Positions 736-48,755 of a DNA stretch of 64,000 nucleotides are shown one piece after another. Every line of letters starts with the position of its first letter. Position 1 is the stretch's first letter. The position numbers were made by a program, and so were the translations under genes. Below the pieces are notes generated by a model that worked only from the letters and a program-made list of their open reading frames with translations, was not told where the DNA came from and made no database searches. The stretch spans positions 25,267 to 89,266 of the forward strand of contig JBEKBM010000010.1 in the NCBI GenBank assembly GCA_050015395.1, read 5' to 3'. The stretch comes from Candidatus Bathyarchaeia archaeon. GTDB lineage: Archaea > Thermoproteota > Bathyarchaeia > Bathyarchaeales > Bathycorpusculaceae.

Positions 736-3008
736 TAGACGACTTTATCCAAAGCATAAAGCGAATGCAATCCTACAAAAAGCAGATTGTGCACATACAA
801 GAAATTCCTCCTAAAGAAGCCTGCTTCGGCGAGCTGGAAAAACCCTTACCTGAAAATATCCAAAATTGCTTATTGACCAGAGACATCCATCTTTATTCAC
901 ACCAGGCTGAAGCGATAAACAAAGTCAGAGCGGGCAAGAACGTCGTAATAGTTACGCCGACCGCTTCAGGAAAAACCTTAGCGTTCAATATTCCAGTTCT
1001 CGAAGCTCTCACAAAAGACCCCAAAGCAACTGCACTATACCTTTACCCGACTAAAGCGCTAACAAATGATCAGCTAAAGGTTCTAAGAGAACTGGAAAAA
1101 GAAACAGGAATCCAAGCTTACCCTAACGTTTACGATGGTGATACACCTCAACATCAAAGGGCAAGCATACGAGAAAACTCTAAAATCATCTTAAGCAACC
1201 CCTATGGACTCCACCAATACCTTCCATGGCACTATAAATGGCGAAGCTTTCTACAAAACCTCAAATTCCTAATAATCGATGAAGCCCACGTTTACCGAGG
1301 AGTATTCGGCTCCAACGTAGCCATGCTCCTAAGACGACTACTAAGAATATGCAATTACTACAATGCAGACCCCCAATTCATTCTCTCATCAGCCACAATC
1401 GCAAACCCAGAAGAGCACGCTAAGAAACTAACGGGAAAAGACTTCGAAATAATCTCAAATGATGGCGCTCCAAGAGGAAAAAAATCATTCATGTTCTGGA
1501 ACCCTCCATTCATCGACAACACCAATACAACTCGCCGATCAACCCATCAAGAAACCAAAGACCTCCTAACACTCAACATTTCAAATAATCTGCAAACCCT
1601 CTGTTTTACAACATCCAGACAAATGGCTGAGCTCATCACAAGATGGACCAAAGAAGAACTCAAAAAAAGATCACCGAAACTAGCCAATTCGGTTACCGCG
1701 TATAGAGCCGGCTATTTACCTCAAGAACGTCGTGAAATAGAAAACCGACTGAAAACCAAAAGCTTAATCGGAGTAGTTTCAACCAACGCGCTGGAACTTG
1801 GAATCGATATAGGTTCTCTTGATTCCGTGATAATTTCGGGTTACCAAGGAACCGTCATATCCACATGGCAGCAAGCGGGACGTGCAGGCAGAAGCAACTC
1901 AGATTCACTTGTAACCCTAGTTGCTTTTCAAAACCCACTCGACCAGTATTTCATGAAGCATCCAAAAGACTTCTTTGGAAGGCCACATGAACAAGCCATA
2001 ATCGACCTGCATAACCGCTACATATCTTTGGGACACATAATGTGTGCAGCAAGCGAACTGCCCCTAACAGAAGCCGACCAAAAATATTTCCCAGAACTAT
2101 TCTCAGACAGCATCCATGCACTTGAACAACAAAACCTAGTTCGCAAAACACCCAGAGGATACGTGTATTCGGGAACAGCAAGACCCGTCGAAGTTGTAAG
2201 TTTGGAAAGCATTTCCGACAAAACCGTCACCGTTACCTGCAACGGAAACATACTCGAAACTCTAACCTTAAACAAAGCCTATGAAGAAGTTCACGCAGGC
2301 GCAATCTTGCTACACCAAGGCGAAACATACATCTCTGAAGAATTAGACCTCAACCAATTAACTGCCAAAGTCAGACAAGAAAACGTCAACTACTACACAG
2401 AAGCACTAAAAACCGTCGACGTCGCGATAAAGAAAACCCTTGAAGAAAAACAAAACGGAGTAACAGTTGGATTAGGCGAATTAGCCATAACAGAATTTTA
2501 CCACACATACATCACCAAAACGTATGATGAAGTTGTCGAAAGAAAACCGCTCAATCTACCGCCATTGTCCTTTTCAACCGTTGGAATGTGGTTCATAATT
2601 CCAGACGAAATCAAAAAAGAAATCGAAGATCGACAGCTCGATTTTGACGGAGGACTGCACGCGGTCGAACATGCAATGATTGCGATGTCTCCAATATTTG
2701 CAATGTGTGACAGATGGGACATTGGAGGATTATCAACACCCCTACACCCAGACACCGGAAACCCAACCATTTTCATTTATGATGGCTTTGAAGGAGGAAT
2801 CGGAATATCAGAAACCCTCTACTCAAACATAAAACCACTATGGGAAAAAACTCTCAAGCTAATCGATAATTGCGAGTGCAAAGACGGCTGCCCCTCATGC
2901 ATATACTCACCAAAATGCGGAAACGAAAACGAACCAATAGACAAAAAAGCAGCAAGCATTATCCTAAACAAACTTTTGAGCAAAGTAAACCAACGACAGA
3001 TCCAATAG
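723..3008 (+). CDS. DEAH-box helicase with C-terminal DUF1998 Zn module (MrfA/YprA/Hrq1 family)
   Basis: LYSHQ, TPTASGKT, YPTKAL, DEAH, SAT and QQAGRAGR motifs; C-terminal CECKDGCPSC. Confidence 0.92.
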   Translation: MEPLIDDFIQSIKRMQSYKKQIVHIQEIPPKEACFGELEKPLPENIQNCLLTRDIHLYSHQAEAINKVRAGKNVVIVTPTASGKTLAFNIPVLEALTKDPKATALYLYPTKALTNDQLKVLRELEKETGIQAYPNVYDGDTPQHQRASIRENSKIILSNPYGLHQYLPWHYKWRSFLQNLKFLIIDEAHVYRGVFGSNVAMLLRRLLRICNYYNADPQFILSSATIANPEEHAKKLTGKDFEIISNDGAPRGKKSFMFWNPPFIDNTNTTRRSTHQETKDLLTLNISNNLQTLCFTTSRQMAELITRWTKEELKKRSPKLANSVTAYRAGYLPQERREIENRLKTKSLIGVVSTNALELGIDIGSLDSVIISGYQGTVISTWQQAGRAGRSNSDSLVTLVAFQNPLDQYFMKHPKDFFGRPHEQAIIDLHNRYISLGHIMCAASELPLTEADQKYFPELFSDSIHALEQQNLVRKTPRGYVYSGTARPVEVVSLESISDKTVTVTCNGNILETLTLNKAYEEVHAGAILLHQGETYISEELDLNQLTAKVRQENVNYYTEALKTVDVAIKKTLEEKQNGVTVGLGELAITEFYHTYITKTYDEVVERKPLNLPPLSFSTVGMWFIIPDEIKKEIEDRQLDFDGGLHAVEHAMIAMSPIFAMCDRWDIGGLSTPLHPDTGNPTIFIYDGFEGGIGISETLYSNIKPLWEKTLKLIDNCECKDGCPSCIYSPKCGNENEPIDKKAASIILNKLLSKVNQRQIQ

Positions 3009-3129
3009 AAATTGAACCCTATCATTATTAAAACTAGACAAAAAGAACCTGGTCGTTACAGCTCACCAAAGAATAAACCAGACAAAGCATATAATATTTC
3101 AAAAAAGTCCAAAAAGACGTCTGAATATC

Positions 3130-3723
3130 ATGAGCAAAACAAAGGAAGCGCCGAAAAATCTCAAAGCACCCAAGCAACTGACATTGGACAATCTACCGAA
3201 TGATCCCATAAAAGAATCCGACAACATAACTAAACATATTTACGAAAAGCACATAATCATAACCGAAATCGGCGCAATCACAAGAGAGGATGAGTTAGCA
3301 CTCAAAATCGGGTTCAAGCTGCTTCCCTCAAAAACCGCGTTTTCAAAAGTTAAGTCGGATCTAGCGTTTGACAACCAACAAATCAGCTCCGTCATAATCA
3401 GAATCCCTCAGAGCCCTTTGGCGGGAGACGATTTCGAGTTAACGCCCGTGCTGGACATGAAGGGAATAACCGCTGGATCCCACTCTATAAAAGTCGAAAT
3501 GTATGAGCCATGGTCTAATGGAGAAAAACTTTCCTTCACCTCCAAAGAGGTTACTGTGGAATATGTTCCCAAGACCAGAGAGTCCAGGCTGATAGAAATT
3601 CCAATTGTAAAAAGCTTCGGAGGCGGGGATTTAGTTGTGGTTTCTGAGTCTGACAAAAACATTTACCGTGAAATTGAAGAAACAATGAAAAAGGAATCAG
3701 TCACCAAGCGAGATGAATGGTAA
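3130..3723 (+). CDS. hypothetical protein
   Basis: 197-aa ATG ORF with host-like composition; no motif recognised. Confidence 0.6.
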   Translation: MSKTKEAPKNLKAPKQLTLDNLPNDPIKESDNITKHIYEKHIIITEIGAITREDELALKIGFKLLPSKTAFSKVKSDLAFDNQQISSVIIRIPQSPLAGDDFELTPVLDMKGITAGSHSIKVEMYEPWSNGEKLSFTSKEVTVEYVPKTRESRLIEIPIVKSFGGGDLVVVSESDKNIYREIEETMKKESVTKRDEW

Positions 3724-40030: not shown

Positions 40031-40288
40031 GGCTATAAGTTGAGGTTGAGGAATGTTTTATCTATTCCGCAGTTTTTGGCTACGAAAGGTAGGCTGGCAG
40101 TCTTCCTAAAATCGAGGAATATAATTTTTTCTGGTGTTTCAGGGTCATTTTTGGGTTGTTTTTTAGGAACAGGCGTTGATTTAAACGTGTCTTACCCGTC
40201 ACGCATCCATGTCGTAACTAGTCACGCAACCACATAGAAACCTGTCACTAATCAGAAATTCTTATTGCTTCCGATAGCGCATTATGTT

Positions 40289-40609
40289 GTGGGCTGGCGA
40301 GTTGGTGTGTGGCTTTCGGACCCAAAAATGCTGGGTCTGAGGAAACTCCGCCCACGTGTAGAATTGCAGTGCCCTCAGGGTACAGGGCGAGAGCCTTGGC
40401 AACGGAGCAGAAACGAAACGTCCAATTGGACTTGGCGATGAGACATTTGTGATGTCGAGTGTGCCAGTTTGGAAGCGGTGAAACGGCCGTCCTGCAAGTG
40501 GAAAGGGCAAACAGTCGCCGATGAAGCCTCTACCTGAAGGCGCGGGTAGCCCGATTAGCCGAATGCCACAGACAACAGAAGGCGGGTTACAACCAACACA
40601 CCACGCCCA
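40289..40609 (+). ncRNA. rnpB: RNase P RNA (archaeal type A-like)
   Basis: Conserved GAGGAAACTCCGCCC, GGCAACGG..CAGAAACG, GGTGAAACGGCCGTCC, GCCGATGA, TAGCCGAATG and ACAGAAGGCGGGTTA; P2 (GTGGC/GCCAC) and P1 pairing visible. Confidence 0.95.
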
Positions 40610-40654
40610 TTACTTAACCAGAGGATATATTGATAATGAAGACATTAACTTACT

Positions 40655-41050
40655 TTAGTTGTTGAATTTTCTTGCGTCTTCCAATAGTTCTTCAAGTAAC
40701 TTGTCCTTTTTCTCAGTATCATGGATTTCACTGCAGATTGACTTGCCGATAGAAAGTTTTGTCTTTAAGATTGTAATATCTTTATAGCGGGTGAAAATTC
40801 TATCAAGTCTTTTATGCGAGTCATCACTTCTTTTAAAAAAGAGAACAGATACGGCCCCTAAAATAATTCCTGAAATTGATGACAACTCAGAAACTGATAA
40901 AGTAATTATCTGTACATATACCAAAAATACACCAATAAATATCATTATAGCGGCAATGCTCGCGAAGAATATACCTATTTTGTGATTCTCATCAGCTTGT
41001 TTGAGAGCCAATTGATAGTAATCTTCTAAACTATCATTGGTTTCACTCAT
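40655..41050 (-). CDS. Two-TM protein resembling the TRADD-N-associated membrane domain
   Basis: DYYQLALKQA, two TMs, then SGIILGAVSVLFFKRSDD; coupled (ATGA) to the TPR gene. Confidence 0.55.
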   Translation of the reverse strand: MSETNDSLEDYYQLALKQADENHKIGIFFASIAAIMIFIGVFLVYVQIITLSVSELSSISGIILGAVSVLFFKRSDDSHKRLDRIFTRYKDITILKTKLSIGKSICSEIHDTEKKDKLLEELLEDARKFNN

Positions 41051-41994
41051 GACTTGATTTCGCCAGCCTGCCCAATTTGTTTGCTGCTCTCTAGTGCCAT
41101 TTCATAGTATGTTTTAGCCTTCTTAGAATCACCCAAATTGCCGTATATTGCCCCTAAAGCGGAATAGCAAGCCGCTTCAGTCGATTTATCGCCTATTTCG
41201 AGTGCAATTTCCAAAGCCTTTCGATAATTTGATTTGGCTGCCTCAAAATCCTTTTGGGTAACATTGACATCACCAATGGCAACATAACATGCCGACTGCA
41301 GTGTTCGGTCACAGATCTCAGTGGCAAGACTTAGAGACTTTTTGTAGTACTCAATTGCCTTCTCGTTGTCTTCGAGAGAATGGTATATATCCCCCAGATT
41401 GATGTAACCCTTTGCTTGACCTGCTCGATTGCCTATTTGTAATGCTATTTCAAGCGCTTCTTTTTGGTATTTAACCGCTTTTGTTAAGTCTCCTATGTTT
41501 CGATAGATGACACCGATATTACCAATTGCTAATGACTCACCAATTTTGTCCTTCGTCTCAATGGTTATAGCCAGGGCTTGCTCGTAATTTTTCAGAGCCT
41601 TTTCAAACATGTTTAAATTCGAATAAACATTACCAATGTTCAAATAAGATTTCGCAAGAATCATTTTATCCTGAATTTGTGTTTCGAGTGCTTTCTCCAA
41701 ATAAGTAAGGGCGACCTTTAAATCATCCAAAAAATACTCGGCATAGCCTAAATTCACGTATGTTTGTGCTTCCCCTAATTTGTCGCCAGTCTTAATATAG
41801 AAAACCAAAGCTCTTTTCCAAGAAAGCACAGCGAATTTATACTTCAAGTTATCGAGAAGAACTTTCCCAATTTCAGAAAGTAAAAGGGCTTTTTCTTTAG
41901 GGTCCGGATACTTTTTTTCGATTAAACTAAGAAAATCCTCAAAATTCTCCTGACTTTCAGCGGTAGCTAATATTGCTCGGTCTATTTCACTCAT
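41047..41994 (-). CDS. Tetratricopeptide-repeat protein (about 40-aa TPR units)
   Basis: Repeated NLG/NIG..Y...A..Y..AL.IA..IGD units. Confidence 0.9.
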   Translation of the reverse strand: MSEIDRAILATAESQENFEDFLSLIEKKYPDPKEKALLLSEIGKVLLDNLKYKFAVLSWKRALVFYIKTGDKLGEAQTYVNLGYAEYFLDDLKVALTYLEKALETQIQDKMILAKSYLNIGNVYSNLNMFEKALKNYEQALAITIETKDKIGESLAIGNIGVIYRNIGDLTKAVKYQKEALEIALQIGNRAGQAKGYINLGDIYHSLEDNEKAIEYYKKSLSLATEICDRTLQSACYVAIGDVNVTQKDFEAAKSNYRKALEIALEIGDKSTEAACYSALGAIYGNLGDSKKAKTYYEMALESSKQIGQAGEIKS

Positions 41995-42232
41995 TTTATC
42001 AACCGTTTTGCTGGCGATTGATTAATATCTTCTTTTTCTTAAAAAGCTTTAATTTACCTGATCTTAAGGTTGTACCTTATTGTTTGAGGTTATACGAGGG
42101 CAACGCAAAACTGCAACAATATTGATAGTTCTCCAGTGAACTGAGCAAGAAGCTGAGCTATCGCTTAAACTCCCCCGCCAACAATAATTGTAGATTGGCA
42201 ATTTCTATTCTTCTACGCAATAGGGTACTTGT

Positions 42233-42263
42233 GAAGGCGGTTACAAACAACACACCAAGCCCA
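42233..42263 (+). repeat. Diverged copy of rnpB 3' end
   Basis: GAAGGCGG-TTACAAACAACACACCAAGCCCA vs native GAAGGCGGGTTACAACCAACACACCACGCCCA (40578-40609). Confidence 0.9.
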
Positions 42264-42489
42264 AAAACAAGCTTTTTGTCTTTTCCTTTTTGCTAGCTTC
42301 TTTTCAAACTGATTCATGTTTTTAAAACAACAACTTGCGCTTTTGAAAGGAAAGAAACCTAAAGCACGTTAGTCTAAAACAATCCATTGTAGTAATTTTT
42401 ACTGTTTTCTGTCAAAAAGCGATTTATACACTAGCGCTAGTGTTGTTGTTGTTATGTTTAACGCTACGGGGAAAGGGCGGCAAGGAAAA

Positions 42490-43005
42490 ATGAGCTATGC
42501 AAATATCGTTGATATTTTGACAATTATTTTCGGAAGTAGTGCATTAATAACCCTGATAGGTTATGCTTTTCAATATAATCAACACAAGTCAGAAAAAGAT
42601 TTTGAAGCAAGGAAAGTAGCACAAGAGTACTACATGACACTATATGGTTACATCGGCGTTTTAGACGAACTAACGAAAAGCTATCTTAGAAGCATTCAAG
42701 ATGGGAAAGCAGAAGTTTTCTCGTATGACAATGGTTTAATTGAGGTTCAAACGTCCGAGAAAATACTTGATAACTACAAGAATAAGTATGTTAACTTTGC
42801 TAGTTTTTACCTTAAGAAATCATGCGAAGGCTACGAGATCTTTGTATCAAAAAAACTCAAAGGGTTATTGATAAAATTTTGGAAAACAGCCAAGATTTTT
42901 TATGACGAACCCTCAAGCCTGAAAAATAAACAGACAGTTGAGAAATTCAATAATGCCGCGAAAGAAACAACCGACAGTATGGAAAAATTATTCGGATTAA
43001 AGTAA
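42490..43005 (+). CDS. hypothetical protein with N-terminal TM
   Basis: AT-rich ORF, one TM then a helical domain. Confidence 0.7.
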   Translation: MSYANIVDILTIIFGSSALITLIGYAFQYNQHKSEKDFEARKVAQEYYMTLYGYIGVLDELTKSYLRSIQDGKAEVFSYDNGLIEVQTSEKILDNYKNKYVNFASFYLKKSCEGYEIFVSKKLKGLLIKFWKTAKIFYDEPSSLKNKQTVEKFNNAAKETTDSMEKLFGLK

Positions 43006-43091
43006 GAGGTATGTAGGCATGCGATTGGAAGAAAAAAATGTTTTCTTAGAAAGAATTTCACTATCTGATTTAGCAAATAAGCAAGCACGAG

Positions 43092-43292
43092 GTGATACGA
43101 ATGACGAGAGAAAACGTGTCATACGATAATGTGGAAATTAAGAAATCTCGAATTTCTATGGATAGCATGAGGCAACCAATGATTCAAGGCGGCAGAATTT
43201 CCCTTGGGAATATTTCAGACGAATCACGAATATCTTATACTAACCTTTCTAACAAGTCTCAGGGTCAGGCGAAAAACACAGGCAAAAAATAG
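43092..43292 (+). CDS. hypothetical small protein
   Basis: GAGGTGA RBS; 66 aa with recurring (S/G)RIS. Confidence 0.45.
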   Translation: MIRMTRENVSYDNVEIKKSRISMDSMRQPMIQGGRISLGNISDESRISYTNLSNKSQGQAKNTGKK

Positions 43293-43375
43293 CTAACATT
43301 AAAGGCAATGGATAATAAGGCGAGCAATGTCGCAACAAAAAAGAAAAAAAGCGTTGGAGATAAAAACCGCTTCTT

Positions 43376-43870
43376 TTATTTGTTTTCACTTGTTTTAACC
43401 TTTATTACAACGGCACCGGTAACTATTGCAATCAACGCTACAATAATGAGGGATATGGGGAACTCTGGAACTGATGGCGTGGGTGTAGCTGTTGCTTGTT
43501 GAGCTTCTACGGTTATTGTATAGCTATCTAAGTTGGCTGCGCTTATTTTGAGGTAGTAGCTGCCTGGTTGCATGTTGTGTTCGTAATTAACGCCGCTATT
43601 TTGGTTTGATTGTGCCATGATGCTGTCTACGGGCAGGTTGTTGCCTTGCTGGTAAACGTCTATGTAGAATGCTGCGTATGTTGGGGTTGAGCTGCTGTAG
43701 GTCCAATTGAGAAGCCATTCGCTGCTGGGTACGTTGAAGTAGTTGGTTGTTTGGTCACTGGCGCCTGTTATAGTTGTTACTTGCTGGTAAGTTTGTGCAC
43801 TTACGAAGCCAGCGGTCGCAAGAACCGTAATTGCTAATATGATTAAGGTTGCTCTTTTTTGATTTTTCAT
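43376..43870 (-). CDS. Secreted protein with PEF-CTERM-like (VPEFP + TM + basic tail) sorting signal
   Basis: Signal peptide MKNQKRATLII...VSA; ATPTPSVPEFP, TM helix, KVKTSENK. Confidence 0.82.
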   Translation of the reverse strand: MKNQKRATLIILAITVLATAGFVSAQTYQQVTTITGASDQTTNYFNVPSSEWLLNWTYSSSTPTYAAFYIDVYQQGNNLPVDSIMAQSNQNSGVNYEHNMQPGSYYLKISAANLDSYTITVEAQQATATPTPSVPEFPISLIIVALIAIVTGAVVIKVKTSENK

Positions 43871-44012
43871 TTTTTGTTCATTCCCTATTTTCTCGCTGTG
43901 TATTCTATACACAAAAATGCACCGCTTCTCTGTTTGTCAGGGATTCTTTTTAAGTCTTGTGTATGAGTGAGTACGTTTGAGTATTAACGCAATAAACAAG
44001 GAGGGTGAAAAC

Positions 44013-44195
44013 TTGACTGAAAAAGAGACGATTGAAAGCATGGCAAAAATCAGGCTTCAAGTAACGGTAAGAGAAGACCTTGTAAAGTATATAGATGAAC
44101 AGGTGGAAAAACTCAGGTTTGCAAGCAGATCACACGCTATCGAATACGCATTAACTCAACTAAAGGAAAAGGACAGACAAGAAAAAAGAGCTTAA
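44013..44195 (+). CDS. CopG/ribbon-helix-helix DNA-binding protein
   Basis: RLQVTVREDLVKYIDEQVEKLRFASRSHAIEYAL; GGAGGGTG RBS. Confidence 0.85.
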   Translation: MTEKETIESMAKIRLQVTVREDLVKYIDEQVEKLRFASRSHAIEYALTQLKEKDRQEKRA

Positions 44196-44331
44196 GGCAG
44201 GCATTTAATGCTCGCAAGCGGTTTCAACTAGTTATTAAGAGCGCTCATGTGCAATTCAAGTAGTAGATATCAATTACCGATAATTAGCTGTTAATCGGAG
44301 AAAGAGTTTCTTACAAGCCCATAAATGTTTA

Positions 44332-44393
44332 AAACGTTTGTCCTGTAAGTTGAAAGGGCAAAGAGAAGGCGGGTTACAACCAACGCACCAGCC
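44332..44393 (+). repeat. Internally deleted copy of rnpB 3' region
   Basis: AAACG...GTCCTGTAAGTTGAAAGGGCAAA (matches 40481-40511) joined to AGAAGGCGGGTTACAACCAACGCACCAGCC (matches 40577-40607). Confidence 0.92.
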
Positions 44394-44414
44394 TCCCAAA
44401 CTTAGAGTGCTTGG

Positions 44415-44586
44415 TTAGACGATTTTTATGTTGTGTTTACCAACACTGGCGAGTTTTTGGTCTCTTGTTAGTAAAACCTCATCGTGGGCCAGTGAAATAC
44501 CCGCAGTAAGCAAATCGTTCTCATTAATCAATCTTCCAGCATCCTGTAGCTCTTCAAAAAGCATGGCGGCTTTTTTGGCGGCTGCT
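44415..44586 (-). pseudogene. C-terminal half of a VapC/PIN toxin
   Basis: AAAKKAAMLFEELQDAGRLINENDLLTAGISLAHDEVLLTRDQKL; N-terminal half absent. Confidence 0.8.
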
Positions 44587-44589
44587 TAG

Positions 44590-44925
44590 TCACTCAAATG
44601 TCCTTCCGTAATTTGCCTCTCTTTCGGCAGCTATTTGCTGCTTTAATCGCTCCAGTTTCTCCTTATCATCCTTTAAGATGCCAGCCAAGCGCATGATGTC
44701 CCCTTTATCTTCTCCGCGTAGTTTTTTTTGATACTTGACTGGGTCTCCATAAAGACCTTTTCCAATCCCCTTTAATTCGGCTACGGGGTCAACTGGTTTT
44801 AGAAACAAGCCCTCATTCGTGGCGCTTATCTCGAGAATTGTGTGGCTTTTAATGTTGAATCTTTCTCGGAGGTTATTAGGAAGAACTATTTGACCACGCT
44901 TGCCAACTTTTACTTTCTGAGACAT
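44590..44925 (-). CDS. AbrB/MazE-type antitoxin, apparently fused to a second VapB-type tail
   Basis: KVGKRGQIVLP...EGLFLKP AbrB fold, followed by DIMRLAGIL...EREAN. Confidence 0.8.
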   Translation of the reverse strand: MSQKVKVGKRGQIVLPNNLRERFNIKSHTILEISATNEGLFLKPVDPVAELKGIGKGLYGDPVKYQKKLRGEDKGDIMRLAGILKDDKEKLERLKQQIAAEREANYGRTFE

Positions 44926-44998
44926 CTTGCGTCAAGCTATAAACTGTAAATTCGGGAAATAACCTTTGTGGCAGATCACACGGTCTATACCTAGTGGC

Positions 44999-45047
44999 GC
45001 CGAAATAAAACCAAAAAGAATGCGGTTTACAGCCTACACTTCCTGCC
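44999..45047 (+). repeat. Degenerate copy of rnpB 3' end
   Basis: AGAATGCGGTTTACAGCCTACAC vs AGAAGGCGGGTTACAACCAACAC (19/23); upstream GCCGAA at near-native spacing. Confidence 0.7.
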
Positions 45048-45065
45048 TGCTTATATCCTGAGGCT

Positions 45066-45389
45066 CTAACTTCTGAGTGCAGTAAGTTGGTTGTTTTTGA
45101 GTTTGTAAATTATGAATGTATCGGGGTCTGTTTTGTTTATAGACCGCTTTGTTCTCCACATGCTGCCCGCTTGGTAGGTAAGTTGATGTTTTATTAGTAT
45201 TTCTTGTATGCATTTTTTTGTTTCTTCATCGAGGGCTGTTTTTATAGTAATTTGATACCCGCCCATCGTTGACGAAGAGACGTTAGGTGATGATAATTCC
45301 AAATAATGGCCATCAAGACCACGGCAATTGTCAAGAAGTTCCTTCAGAACCGATATTGCTTCTTCCCGTTTCAAAACAATCCCTAACAA
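45066..45389 (-). CDS. hypothetical protein
   Basis: 107-aa ORF ending 19 bp from an rnpB-like repeat. Confidence 0.6.
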   Translation of the reverse strand: MLGIVLKREEAISVLKELLDNCRGLDGHYLELSSPNVSSSTMGGYQITIKTALDEETKKCIQEILIKHQLTYQAGSMWRTKRSINKTDPDTFIIYKLKNNQLTALRS

Positions 45390-45491
45390 CTCTCTTAGGA
45401 ACTTCTCATAAAAAAGATTCGGTAAGAGGGAAGATGACGTTTAGGCGCTCAACCGAAAATAATACATTGATGTCTAGCTTCAATACTAAGT

Positions 45492-45965
45492 GTGACCCAT
45501 TTGTCGAAAAAGGAATACGATACCCTTGAAGTTGTGCCGCATGTCGATCTAAAAAAGTACTTGGGCAAATGGTATGAGATAGCACGTCTTCCCGCCAGAT
45601 TTGAAGAAGGCTGTTCCGATATAACAGCAACTTACTCTCTACGTGAAGATGGCACTATATCTGTGCTCAACGAATGCAAAAGGAACGGCAAAGTGAAACG
45701 GGCAAAGGGCAAGGCAAAAGTGGTTGACAAGAACACTGGAGCGAAACTTAAAGTAACATTCTTCTGGCCATTTTACGGTGACTACTGGATCATAAATTTG
45801 GGGAAAGACTACGATTACGCCGTTGTAGGCACACCAAACCGCAAGTACCTTTGGATACTAAGCAGAACCCCACAAATGGACGACAAGCTATTTTCCCAAT
45901 TAATAGAACTTGTAAAGTCAAAAGGTTTCGATGTTACAAACCTTATTAGAACCAGCCATACCTAA
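45492..45965 (+). CDS. Lipocalin (Blc-like), no signal peptide
   Basis: YLGKWYEIAR, DYWII...DYDYAVVG and LWILSRTP motifs. Confidence 0.92.
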   Translation: MTHLSKKEYDTLEVVPHVDLKKYLGKWYEIARLPARFEEGCSDITATYSLREDGTISVLNECKRNGKVKRAKGKAKVVDKNTGAKLKVTFFWPFYGDYWIINLGKDYDYAVVGTPNRKYLWILSRTPQMDDKLFSQLIELVKSKGFDVTNLIRTSHT

Positions 45966-46176
45966 TGAAAAAACCTATCCATTCTGAGTTTCAACGCTTT
46001 TTTTCAAGCCAGCAAACGAAGAAAGAAAGGGTCATGTGTGAATGCGTTATTTTCTTAACCAAACGCTAAATATCCATTAGAGAAAACCCTGTAAAAGCTT
46101 ATAACTAGATACCACAAAAAGAACACAGGGATTAAAAATGAGTGAAGAAATAAGTAGAAAAAAATTACTAAGCCCA

Positions 46177-46209
46177 AAGGCGGGTTACAACCAGCACACC
46201 AGCCCACAG
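46177..46209 (+). repeat. Copy of rnpB 3' end
   Basis: AAGGCGGGTTACAACCAGCACACCAGCCCACAG. Confidence 0.92.
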
Positions 46210-46393
46210 CTAAACTCATCTACGGTTTCGGTTTTCTAAAAATCACGATTTTTTGTTATGTAAACGAAGCAGAAACCACATTAGGCTACAGTTTCGTTAG
46301 TAACTATCAAGGGATATCTTACGAAGCCAGCTTAGATTTGGATAATAATATTAGCATCGAAAATTTTTTACCGCAGAATAGCGTATTAACAGT

Positions 46394-46618
46394 TTGAGGG
46401 TGTATATTATGGCTGTACTCGAATGCCCCTTCTGTTATGAACTCCTTGAAGTTGAGCCGCCTGATAGACTCCATACAGCATATTCATCAGTAAAGCCAAT
46501 ACTAAATAGTTACTATGGCGATATTGTGAAAAAGAAATATAAGTGCCAAAACCCAAACTGCAAAAAGTCAATTACAGCTTTCTGGTATGCGCCACTAGAA
46601 TACTTCAGCCGAATATGA
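46394..46618 (+). CDS. Small Zn-ribbon protein
   Basis: CPFC...CQNPNC. Confidence 0.65.
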   Translation: MRVYIMAVLECPFCYELLEVEPPDRLHTAYSSVKPILNSYYGDIVKKKYKCQNPNCKKSITAFWYAPLEYFSRI

Positions 46619-46770
46619 CGACTCCAAATAACTCATATGAATAACCGACCAGCATCAGCTCTTTTGCAGAAACTTAGGTGCCTTCTCGGATACAACCACT
46701 AATTTCCTGCGTAAATGGATAGAAACCTTAAATCTAAATTGAATCTAATAGAGATAGAGGCTGAAATTTC

Positions 46771-46983
46771 ATGGCAGACAATGTTTTGGTGGAAGTAAGT
46801 GTAAGCCGGGACAAAGGCGAAATTGTGTACAAGGTTGATTGCTCTAGTAACTTAACAAATGAAGAACTCGAATATTACCTTAAAGAAATAATTGAAGGTA
46901 TATGCAAATGGAAACCAGGCGTTTGTGAAGAAACAGTGAAAAGCTTTAAAGGAACAATCAGAAAAAGGAAAACAAACAAATAA
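46771..46983 (+). CDS. hypothetical small protein
   Basis: ATG ORF with GAGG RBS and upstream TATA-like motif. Confidence 0.55.
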   Translation: MADNVLVEVSVSRDKGEIVYKVDCSSNLTNEELEYYLKEIIEGICKWKPGVCEETVKSFKGTIRKRKTNK

Positions 46984-47092
46984 TCCAAACCAAATTAAGA
47001 AACAATCATTTATATTTTTTCAAGATTTGACCTAATAACCTTACTTGCGAGAAAAAAAGGATTAACTATCCGAGAAATTTGACTCTTAGGTT

Positions 47093-47413
47093 TTACCTGT
47101 TATATTTGGGACGTTTGGATTCTCTGAGCCAAAATTGAGGGTCATCAACCAATATGACCTGAACCTCAACGACATTTCTGGGACTTGTTATTGCGGCGCG
47201 GAATTTCGGGGATAAATCTGTGTTACTTAGAAATGCCATTCTGGACTCTTCCAACTGATCCGCGATGCGCTCAGCTTTTTTGTTTGCGTAGCCGCGGTAC
47301 TTTACGCTTTTTCCTTCAACGATAGCTTTATCGAAAGCCTCTTTACTGCACTGTACCAGTTTGGCGCCGTCTCGGATGAACCAGCAGGCAAGAGTTGGAG
47401 AAGTCTTGGTCAT
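47093..47413 (-). CDS. hypothetical protein
   Basis: 106-aa ATG ORF. Confidence 0.6.
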   Translation of the reverse strand: MTKTSPTLACWFIRDGAKLVQCSKEAFDKAIVEGKSVKYRGYANKKAERIADQLEESRMAFLSNTDLSPKFRAAITSPRNVVEVQVILVDDPQFWLRESKRPKYNR

Positions 47414-47644
47414 AATAATCTGTTAGCAATATCGTTTAGGTGACTCTTAATTAACATTTTCATTGCAAACAGAAAGATGCGCCTCAGAAGTCGAATTTAA
47501 AGCAAATCATCTCAGGAACTGAAATCCCGCTTCAGACTGACGTGTTTATCATCATAGGCACTTCAAAACGATAAATCGGAAAAAAGAGGCTTAGTTTTGC
47601 TAAACGGTTAATCACTTTTCAATACGAATAATAATCCTGTGATG

Positions 47645-47761
47645 TTAACGTTTGATGATGAGCATATGGCCCTTATGGTTAACAATTCTGTGGATTCTTA
47701 GCTCTTCAGGATTATTAAATTTCGCTGAACAGATTCTGCATTTATACGATTCTCCAAACAT
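47645..47761 (-). CDS. Stand-alone classical C2H2 zinc-finger mini-protein (not in ORF track)
   Basis: MFGESYKCRICSAKFNNPEELRIHRIVNHKGHMLIIKR = Y-x-C-x2-C-x3-F-x5-L-x2-H-x4-H; alternative TTG starts at 47782/47788 after GGAGAAGG. Confidence 0.8.
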   Translation of the reverse strand: MFGESYKCRICSAKFNNPEELRIHRIVNHKGHMLIIKR

Positions 47762-47919
47762 GACTTTGTTATCCAGTATCAAACTCAACCTTCTCCCTAT
47801 TGGCTTTGCAAAAATCGCTTCTTACAAGCCATCTTAAAGAGCAACTAAGCCACTTATAAACAAATGATAAATTCCTGCTAAACCGCCATACCTTTCGTTG
47901 AATTGTGTTAAAATTCTTC

Positions 47920-48141
47920 TCAGATTTTTTTTTGATATTTGACTGGGTCTCCGAAAACGCCTTTTCCAAGCCCTTTCATCTCAGCTATCGGATTGAAAGG
48001 TTTCAAAAGTAAGCCTTCCCCTGTTTCCTCAATCTCTAAAATTATTCCCTTTTCTATTTTAAATTTTCTGCGAAGTTTTTGGGGAATAACCACTTGCCCA
48101 CGTGTACCAACTTTAGGTGTATCGACAAAGTGTATCAACAA
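47920..48141 (-). CDS. Second AbrB/MazE-type antitoxin (paralog of 44590-44925), possibly truncated, no toxin
   Basis: KVGTRGQVVIP...EGLLLKPFNPIAEMKGLGKGVFGDPVKYQKKI*; TGA where the paralog has Arg. Confidence 0.72.
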   Translation of the reverse strand: MLIHFVDTPKVGTRGQVVIPQKLRRKFKIEKGIILEIEETGEGLLLKPFNPIAEMKGLGKGVFGDPVKYQKKI

Positions 48142-48173
48142 AATGTATTGACATTTGACCCCCCGGTAGGTAG
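48117..48173 (+). repeat. 3 x 13-bp tandem repeat followed by CCGGTAGGTAG
   Basis: gtgtatcgacaaa gtgtatcaacaaa atgtattgacatt tgaccccccggtaggtag. Confidence 0.75.
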
Positions 48174-48394
48174 TAGACTACAAACGTATATTTCGGTCCT
48201 GTTGAAACCACGGCAATAGAAGACCTAAATGCCAAAGACACGAAGCGCCTCAGAACGCATTTTAATTTCAAGTCATCTTTTGGGAAACAGCAGTAAGCTG
48301 AAACCCTCATCCAAACGTGCAATTATCTTCATTGGCGCCATTAATACTTTCGCAGTCTTGTTAAAATCGGTAGCTAACGTAAATATCTGCGTAT

Positions 48395-48447
48395 GCCGAT
48401 GAGTCCACCTGCCTGAAAACAAGGGTAGCCCCCGATTAGCCGAATGC
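48395..48447 (+). repeat. Diverged internal fragment of rnpB
   Basis: GCCGATGA...CCTGAA....GGGTAGCCC(CC)GATTAGCCGAATGC vs native 40517-40566. Confidence 0.88.
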
Positions 48448-48755
48448 AACACTAATTCATAATTCAATTACCCGTCTTCAGCGATAAGTAAAAGGGGTAC
48501 TCTTTTAGCTCGAAAAATAAGTTAACAAAAAGACATGGAGGGGCAGGGCAGGTCTATTTAGCTAGTGAAACCAGTCTAAAAAGAGAAGGGGAGGACAACT
48601 CATTTTTGCTCGCGAATTTCTTAGTCGAAAATGAGGTACCGGCAGGGCAGGCACACTATTGATGAAGATTCCTCGGCAAAAAATGCAGGTATCCCTCTCG
48701 AGGAGTTATCAGCTTTCTGGAAAAAAAGAAATTTTAAAAGCAGCAATTATTATTA

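Follow-up and report, generated by a model that had tools for sequence, protein, structure and literature searches.

Integration into the 3' ends of tRNA and tmRNA genes is textbook knowledge, and Williams reportedly described, in 2002, genomic islands and proviruses with tyrosine recombinases that had integrated into the 3' part of these genes. Integrons have an IntI integrase together with an attI site and cassettes that are bounded by attC sites.

As given in excerpts of a survey of thaumarchaeal elements (PMC6563490), 39 of the 68 elements have tRNA targets, 15 have intergenic targets, and 14 have protein-gene targets. In Dehalococcoides, islands that are specific for the ssrA gene lie in tandem downstream of it and are bounded by repeats of its 3' end (McMurdie et al. 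2011, PMC3146451, in excerpts). The same excerpts read the island next to the gene as the most recent one; the idea of polarity is already in print. In the literature on archaeal attachment sites (main texts), we met with no account of insertion into the RNase P RNA gene, and neither "RNase P" nor "rnpB" was found in the main text of PMC6563490 or of PMC8371274. Some of the sites that are listed as intergenic in the excerpts of PMC6563490 may be rnpB, and Table S2 of that survey could bear on this.

Here we analyzed a window of 64 kb (the whole stretch of DNA, 64,000 nucleotides) from a Bathyarchaeia archaeon. We propose that the 3' part of rnpB is the attB site of tyrosine-recombinase elements, that insertions and the loss of the integrases led to a fossil array, that the 3' end that is now attached to rnpB came from the last insertion, and that a distal copy at 46177–46209 is an earlier end. 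We give this reading, as a whole, a probability of roughly 65%. The attachment site appears to be the last 33–135 nt of rnpB. Each element would bring its own copy of the 3' part of rnpB, and recombination would join that copy to the body of the gene and push the previous end downstream, with whatever followed it. Repeated insertions, and then the loss of the integrases, would give the present array. The attached end, with C40604, would have arrived with the last insertion. The copy at 46177–46209 would have served the gene earlier and would have been kept behind the part that was cut off from an integrase gene (its promoter, its start codon, and 13 initial codons), and an older displaced end would survive at 48395–48451. 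The integrase would have its att site inside its own 5' coding region, so that integration would cut off its promoter and start codon. Strand exchange presumably takes place at the gene-internal edge of the repeat, which would make the displaced copies former working ends. We observe the repeats, integrases beside rnpB in relatives, an outer helix that covaries, a shared flank, and proximal cassettes that are specific to this genome; we infer the splitting of the integrase gene and the order of events. The features are, in order:

40289–40610, + strand: rnpB, the archaeal RNase P RNA gene, with its outer P1 helix (the RF00373 match is 40297–40601)
40289–40297, + strand: 5' strand of the outer P1 helix, GTGGGCTGG (read directly from the sequence)
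40574–40610, + strand: attached 3' end, an attL-type junction, probably from the last inserted element, with an extra C at 40604 (from the sequence, relatives, and DNA contigs)
40611–42232, unstranded: cassette 1, specific to this genome, with a 2TM protein at 40655–41050 (-) and a TPR protein at 41047–41994 (-)
42233–42265, + strand: displaced copy 2, with one G missing and a bulged CCAAGCCCA (profile search, E = 1.5e-5)
42266–44331, unstranded: cassette 2, with ORFs at 42454–43005 (+) and 43376–43912 (-) that match no Pfam family and an RHH protein at 43977–44195 (+)
44332–44404, + strand: displaced copy 3, long, with rnpB 40481–40514 joined to 40574–40616 and about 59 internal nt absent (profile search, E = 2.2e-9)
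44405–45013, unstranded: cassette 3, with a truncated PIN remnant at 44416–44586 and an AbrB/MazE-like gene at 44590–44925 (-)
45014–45043, + strand: copy 4, weak and decayed (73% to the reference copy)
45044–46098, unstranded: cassette 4, common to relatives, with an ORF at 45066–45389 (-) and a lipocalin at 45492–45965 (+)
46099–46176, + strand: conserved element arm, interpreted as int(N), the cut-off 5' part of an integrase gene (TTATAA box at 46099–46104, ATG at 46138–46140, 13 codons into att)
46177–46209, + strand: distal 3'-end copy (copy 5), an attR-type junction, with CCAGCCCAC at 46199–46207 (profile search, E = 1.1e-8)
46210–46297, + strand: right flank with T-runs (GGTTTTC, GATTTTTTG), common to displaced ends of genomes G004 and G124
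46298–48394, unstranded: blocks whose order varies among relatives, with ORFs at 46394–46618 (+), 46771–46983 (+), 47093–47413 (-), and 47920–48141 (-)
48395–48451, + strand: oldest displaced copy, an internal piece of rnpB (40517–40570; 79%, E = 1e-6)

rnpB is the sole Rfam match within the 64-kb window (191 bits, where the gathering score is 84; E = 3e-55; model positions 1–288 of 288), and no tRNA genes were found in the window. The Rfam model stops at 40601, so the outer helix is beyond it. We aligned rnpB, with short flanking stretches, from 39 genomes of this order and counted pairs. Across the eight outer pairs of P1, 83% of cells were paired, and slid controls paired far less (24–51%). 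In five of the eight pairs, both sides have changed; for instance, five sequences have GGGTTG/CAACCC in place of GGGCTG/CAGCCC. In the extension, the six inner pairs (GGGCTG/CAGCCC) form in 82–100% of the 39 sequences; for the two outermost pairs, the counts are only 26 and 16. Given this covariation, the outer helix has been selected as an RNA structure, either in the mature RNA or in the precursor only. RNA-library contigs from two peat runs span 40298–40603, and each of the two runs has a contig that terminates at 40603 without a loose end, where the DNA contigs continue; these RNA contigs are unitigs of about 60 nt, with eight pieces listed per run, and strain variants also diverge at 40603. 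The summed depth of the RNA contigs over 40287–40573 is 36,719 (run X19) and 60,535 (run X20), and it is zero over all cassettes; these sums combine many related organisms and are no measure of expression.

The original prediction placed the 5' strand of P1 at 40289–40297, held that the attached 3' end needs a bulge to pair with it, and held that the distal copy is its exact complement. All of this is correct. The 5' strand reads GTGGGCTGG; the attached end reads CCACGCCCAT at 40601–40610, with the extra C at 40604; and the distal copy has CCAGCCCAC at 46199–46207, the exact complement of 40289–40297. (The predicted end of the copy, 46209, takes in two further bases, AG.) Throughout the 64-kb window, CCAGCCCAC is found twice, as the reverse complement at 40289–40297 and on the + strand at 46199–46207, where 0.28 occurrences are expected. 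Furthermore, 46177–46215 is 85% identical to 40579–40618 of rnpB, so the distal copy is homologous to the end of the gene and is not a chance match.

With the 5' strand (40289–40305), the duplex energy is -21.2 kcal/mol for the attached end, -18.3 for copy 2, -21.7 for copy 3, and -27.9 for the distal copy. For the outer 9 nt alone, the energies are -13.2 (attached) versus -19.9 kcal/mol (distal); the attached end is about 6.7 kcal/mol worse in pairing. Within the span of the Rfam model, the two ends differ only at A40598 versus G46194: the G of the distal copy (CCAGC) gives a G.U pair and the attached end has A-U. A functional cost of the attached end is not evident, since its energy is inside the range of relatives with a single copy (-19.7 to -29.5 kcal/mol). 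And good pairing is no proof of chromosomal origin, since elements mostly carry a well-pairing end: 12 of the 16 ends with an adjacent integrase have the unbulged CCAGCCCA. In five of seven arrays, a displaced copy outpairs the attached end with its own genome's 5' strand, and the best pairing is by the most distal copy in only three of the seven.

The displaced copies of the rnpB 3' end are direct repeats, all on the + strand. In the fossil array, from 40.6 to 46.2 kb, four or five displaced ends lie between cargo cassettes, and the older fragment at 48395–48451 lies further out. DNA contigs from two other peat runs reproduce 40574–45616 and 40574–44626 with zero differences, so the array is not an assembly artifact. 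A profile search at E ≤ 1 did not recover copy 4, and we retain it, on positional grounds, as a weak copy. At its position, a contig from a sister strain has a well-kept copy (start codon plus att). At the far end, the counterpart of 48395–48451 in genome G068 continues into ACAGAAGGCAGGTTACATAC; these 30 nt are deleted in the window, where we found no decayed terminal strand after 48451 (score 5, versus a null mean of 6.6).

The part of rnpB that copy 3 lacks (40515–40573) is close to the stretch that the far fragment keeps (40517–40570), so that together the two would nearly make up one long 3' copy. AACAG repeats lie on either side of the deletion in copy 3; either chance or recombination at a secondary site is possible.

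As for the cargo, the rnpB regions of relatives have no homologue of cassette 1. Its 2TM protein matches PF20712 (TRADD-N-associated TM domain) and is translationally coupled to the 315-aa TPR protein. A PADLOC scan for defence systems with 12 cassette proteins, including this pair, gave generic TPR matches only. At 44416–44925 is the remnant of a toxin-antitoxin pair: the AbrB/MazE-like gene is intact and the PIN gene lacks about 198 nt relative to that of genome G003 (L028:14393–14764). The ORF at 46394–46618 (+) encodes 74 amino acids and has no match in Pfam; 61 of 120 genomes of the genus contain this DNA, at locations that vary and in some cases two or three times over. The motif TTACTAASCC is not enriched in the window (13 found versus 7.7 expected), and a scan of the window for bacterial-type promoters and terminators gave counts equal to those of shuffled sequences.

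The relatives are, by their names, Bathyarchaeia of peat, bog, and palsa. Among 14 relatives' rnpB loci, four (G002, G003, G008, and G014) have one or two clear extra copies downstream, and weak copies are present in another three; displaced copies downstream of rnpB are found in G124 and G087 as well. Genes or gene fragments for tyrosine recombinases (PF00589) lie directly after rnpB in G003, G008, G010, G014, and G015 (64 of 103 selected ORFs were scanned). These integrases belong to three lineages and occur in both orientations. The G008 type has 302 relatives at E ≤ 1e-10. In a collection of species-level genomes, this family is found at 32 loci, all from Bathyarchaeia, and 22 of these have rnpB (16 complete and two cut by the end of the contig) or an att copy (four) within about 105 nt upstream, on the same strand. 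Of the other ten loci, one is ambiguous and nine lack rnpB or a copy; no Rfam family and no tRNA was found at these nine. In four loci without rnpB (L056, L058, L060, and L062), which represent one branch of this family, the integrase frames extend upstream through another conserved stretch, TATAAGGGGGCTTTTGG, which reads ..YKGAFG...

Some gene calls in this family run upstream through att and into rnpB (such as ..ARVARLAECHKKQKAGY..): there are at least 17 among the 120 homologues listed, as read by eye, where a strict motif flagged only one. In L075, the start codon, att, and the integrase's C-terminal portion are in one frame. Near their N-terminus, L047, P0086, and P0096, which are apparently unsplit, have the encoded motif YN(Q/N)Q(H/F)TSP. 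In G010, L053, and L072, which form an unsplit branch, there are stop codons between att and the integrase's own start. In seven public sequences (P0001, P0005, P0032, P0044, P0053, P0063, and P0077), the integrase call starts at an ATG inside rnpB (..CCGAATGCC..), and the first 10–40 residues are translated ribozyme, which is either an annotation artifact or expression by read-through from rnpB. And at the end of a 252-kb contig, two full-length rnpB genes in opposite orientation flank an integrase within 3.5 kb (L061:170–479 on the + strand and 2855–3168 on the - strand); an inversion between att sites could explain this, as could a faulty assembly.

In the window itself, no integrase or remnant of one was found between 40.6 and 48.7 kb, and this genome has only distant integrases (33–37% identity). 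A scan of metagenomes for the distal junction recovered three loci, of which the first is the same as the window, the second is unrelated, and the third comes from a sister strain; none of them is an empty site. Similarly, among 120 genomes of the genus there is no empty site, and no rnpB is joined whole to the flank of the distal copy. A scan of viral contigs with P0086 found no free element or circular form.

It had been suggested that the array has a polarity, with the newest cassette next to rnpB. The closest relatives (G068, G124, and G087) have rnpB genes that are about 94% identical to this one. These genomes have no match to 40611–45096, and from 45097 outward they share the sequence at 89–95%, so the new material adjoins the gene. 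The cargo of 40611–45096 breaks synteny, and both sides of it are shared with close relatives. A broad polarity stands: proximal DNA is specific to this genome, distal DNA is shared, and the outermost piece is the most decayed. The order is not strict. Copy 4 is more decayed than copy 5, which is more distal; the blocks between 46.3 and 48.7 kb are in a different order in G003 and G068; and comparing the flanks indicates that cassettes moved between att copies.

The distal copy has an arm on its left that resembles the start of an integrase gene. About 34 nt after the TTATAA box is an ATG, and the 13 codons from there run in frame into the att copy, giving MSEEISRKKLLSPKAGYNQHTSPQ. In G003, G087, G124, and L075, displaced copies have a matching arm (box, ATG, and frame) before them, and G008 has a form with GTG; overall, an in-frame ATG is ahead of six of 17 displaced copies. 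To the right of the distal copy, the flank is shared with displaced ends that have other left arms. In G124, a displaced rnpB copy of about 115–130 nt is followed by a 67-nt flank that is homologous to 46208–46275 (score 21; shuffled sequences had a mean of 7.9 and a maximum of 15). G004 has a decayed copy and, after it, a flank that matches that of the distal copy (score 54). Since the same right flank of roughly 65 nt follows different left arms, the distal copy was probably once a working end of rnpB, as had been suspected; one right side with differing left arms is the trace that independent insertions into one ancestral end would be expected to leave. The T-runs in the flank fit what is expected downstream of an archaeal RNA gene. 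G068, whose 5' strand is identical, has CCAGCACACCAGCCCAC as its attached end; the region of the distal copy is missing entirely from G068 and from G087.

Alternatively, the distal copy might be just the att site of an element, which never closed P1 of this gene and fits it because elements copy the consensus. We think this is unlikely, although several observations are in its favor. Most of the integrase-adjacent ends (12 of 16) have the same CCAGCCCA. The apparently unsplit integrases P0086, P0096, and L047 encode YN(Q/N)Q(H/F)TSP, that is, TACAACCAG..ACCAGCCC, within their 5' coding region. CCAGC is the state of the order's other families and not of the genus. And the right flank may be element DNA, as AGCTAAACTCA is also found after the inner att copy in a sister strain (L046) and after an att copy behind a different block in G068; AGCTAAAC, too, recurs after other att copies. 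However, there is no integrase beyond the distal copy, where the frame of the arm stops after 12 codons, so the left and right sides came from different sources, as in a recombinant junction. Furthermore, in G124 the matching right flank is behind about 115–130 nt of genuine rnpB with no element arm. Finally, at the position of the distal copy's G there is an A in both G124 and G004, which suggests that the G arose later. (In the apparently unsplit L047, at 2005–2080, there is an att-like stretch, and about 20 nt further on is a second match, of 23 bases, to the part of rnpB just upstream of att, GAATTGCTACAACAACAGAAGGC.)

The original prediction went further and took 46177–46209 to be the original chromosomal end of rnpB, with everything between it and the gene inserted later. 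This seems quite improbable to us. The exact complementarity to the 5' strand would fit it, as would the genus-consensus sequence of the copy, the T-runs that resemble a transcription stop in a flank that is common to G004 and G124, and the proximal cassettes that are specific to this genome. But beyond it, at 48395–48451, is a longer, older, and more decayed piece of rnpB that in G068 runs into the terminal strand, so the distal copy is not the first chromosomal end. Also, between 46.3 and 48.7 kb the blocks have another order in G003 and G068, and none of 120 genomes of the genus has the distal flank directly after a whole rnpB. Our reading is instead that the distal copy is most likely a former working end, and that it was probably itself supplied by a still older element.

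The attached end is the other half of the argument. The idea that insertions each supply a replacement 3' end, and that the ribozyme is a chimera, is probably right. The CCACGCCCA allele of the attached end is present in seven other genomes (G003, G008, G014, L068, L075, L076, and G124): in the middle copies of G003 and G008, in the distal copy of G014, in L068, L075, and L076, and at the attached end of G124. Beyond 40610, there is no synteny with any relative that we examined, and the first 40 nt after the attached end have no run of four or more T. A DNA contig from run X6, a strain variant from peat, agrees with the window up to 40603 and then has GCCCATTTTACTAG, without the extra C. From these comparisons, the attached end is probably foreign, which would make the working ribozyme a chimera. 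That the attached end is native and that C40604 arose by an insertion mutation in place is very improbable: the flank ATTACTTAACC does resemble the ATTTTACTAAC flank of G012, G014, G015, and the X6 variant, all of which lack the extra C, and one-base bulges (A, C, T, or G) are found at this position in several genomes, but the CCACGCCCA allele is in displaced or integrase-adjacent copies of seven other genomes and the DNA after 40610 is not syntenic with that of any relative examined.

If our proposal is true, then finders of proviruses or islands that use tRNA genes as anchors overlook a hot spot in a lineage of sediment and peat that is abundant worldwide. Part of an essential ribozyme would routinely be foreign, with bulges and mismatches in P1 being tolerated. 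Gene callers would produce false integrase N-termini that are translated from rnpB. And pairing a stranded end with the untouched 5' strand would be a usable, though imperfect, way to order insertions at genes for structured RNAs. More tentatively, and with considerable doubt on our part, these observations might be joined into a wider picture. The ribozyme would be repeatedly re-tipped, with 33 to about 135 nt of its 3' region exchanged horizontally (the 3' strands of both P1 and P2, together with the neighboring internal region when the replacement is long). Integrases would hold att in their own 5' coding region, and a tandem neighbor could restore the promoter and start codon. Cassettes that lack an integrase would be shuffled in trans, so that rnpB would anchor an integron-like platform for gene capture.

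The repeats in the window are ends of rnpB, which we presume are not attC hairpins, and there is no integrase in the window. Overall, we see an ordinary mechanism at a target for which we found no archaeal report in the literature. As in the islands at tRNA and tmRNA genes, in the excerpts of that literature, the far border has a direct repeat of the gene's 3' end, the gene is made whole again by the element, the integrase adjoins the gene, and re-use of the site leads to arrays. The difference is the target, which is here the RNase P RNA gene. Also, the repeats here come in several lengths (about 33, 60–75, about 95, and about 135 nt).

The ssrA islands of Dehalococcoides (excerpts of PMC3146451) are similar in that the target is a single-copy, essential gene for a stable RNA and in that many islands lack an integrase. 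There, too, each repeat has, immediately upstream, a conserved motif that cannot be aligned with the gene, and the integrase gene extends across the junction. That system is bacterial and uses tmRNA, a 20-bp repeat, and a serine recombinase (DsiB, which is CcrB-like), whereas this one is archaeal and uses rnpB and tyrosine recombinases (PF00589).

In the "suicidal" integrases of SSV1, pTN3, and pT26-2 (excerpts of PMC8371274 and PMC7253208), att lies inside the integrase frame, as it appears to here. In their topology, the 5' piece ends up at the far junction and the catalytic part beside the target gene, and the arrangement here may be the same. PF16795 (Phage_integr_3), which is the suicidal family according to the excerpts of PMC8371274, had no match at E ≤ 1e-4 and PF00589 alone matched, so the rnpB-adjacent integrases are not members of the suicidal SSV/pTN3 family. 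The same excerpts tie the suicidal system to hyperthermophilic archaea, whereas the hosts here are Bathyarchaeia from peat. In contrast to the suicidal integrases, only about 6–28 codons plus the promoter would be cut off here, and some members of the family, which have a start codon of their own downstream of att, are unsplit.
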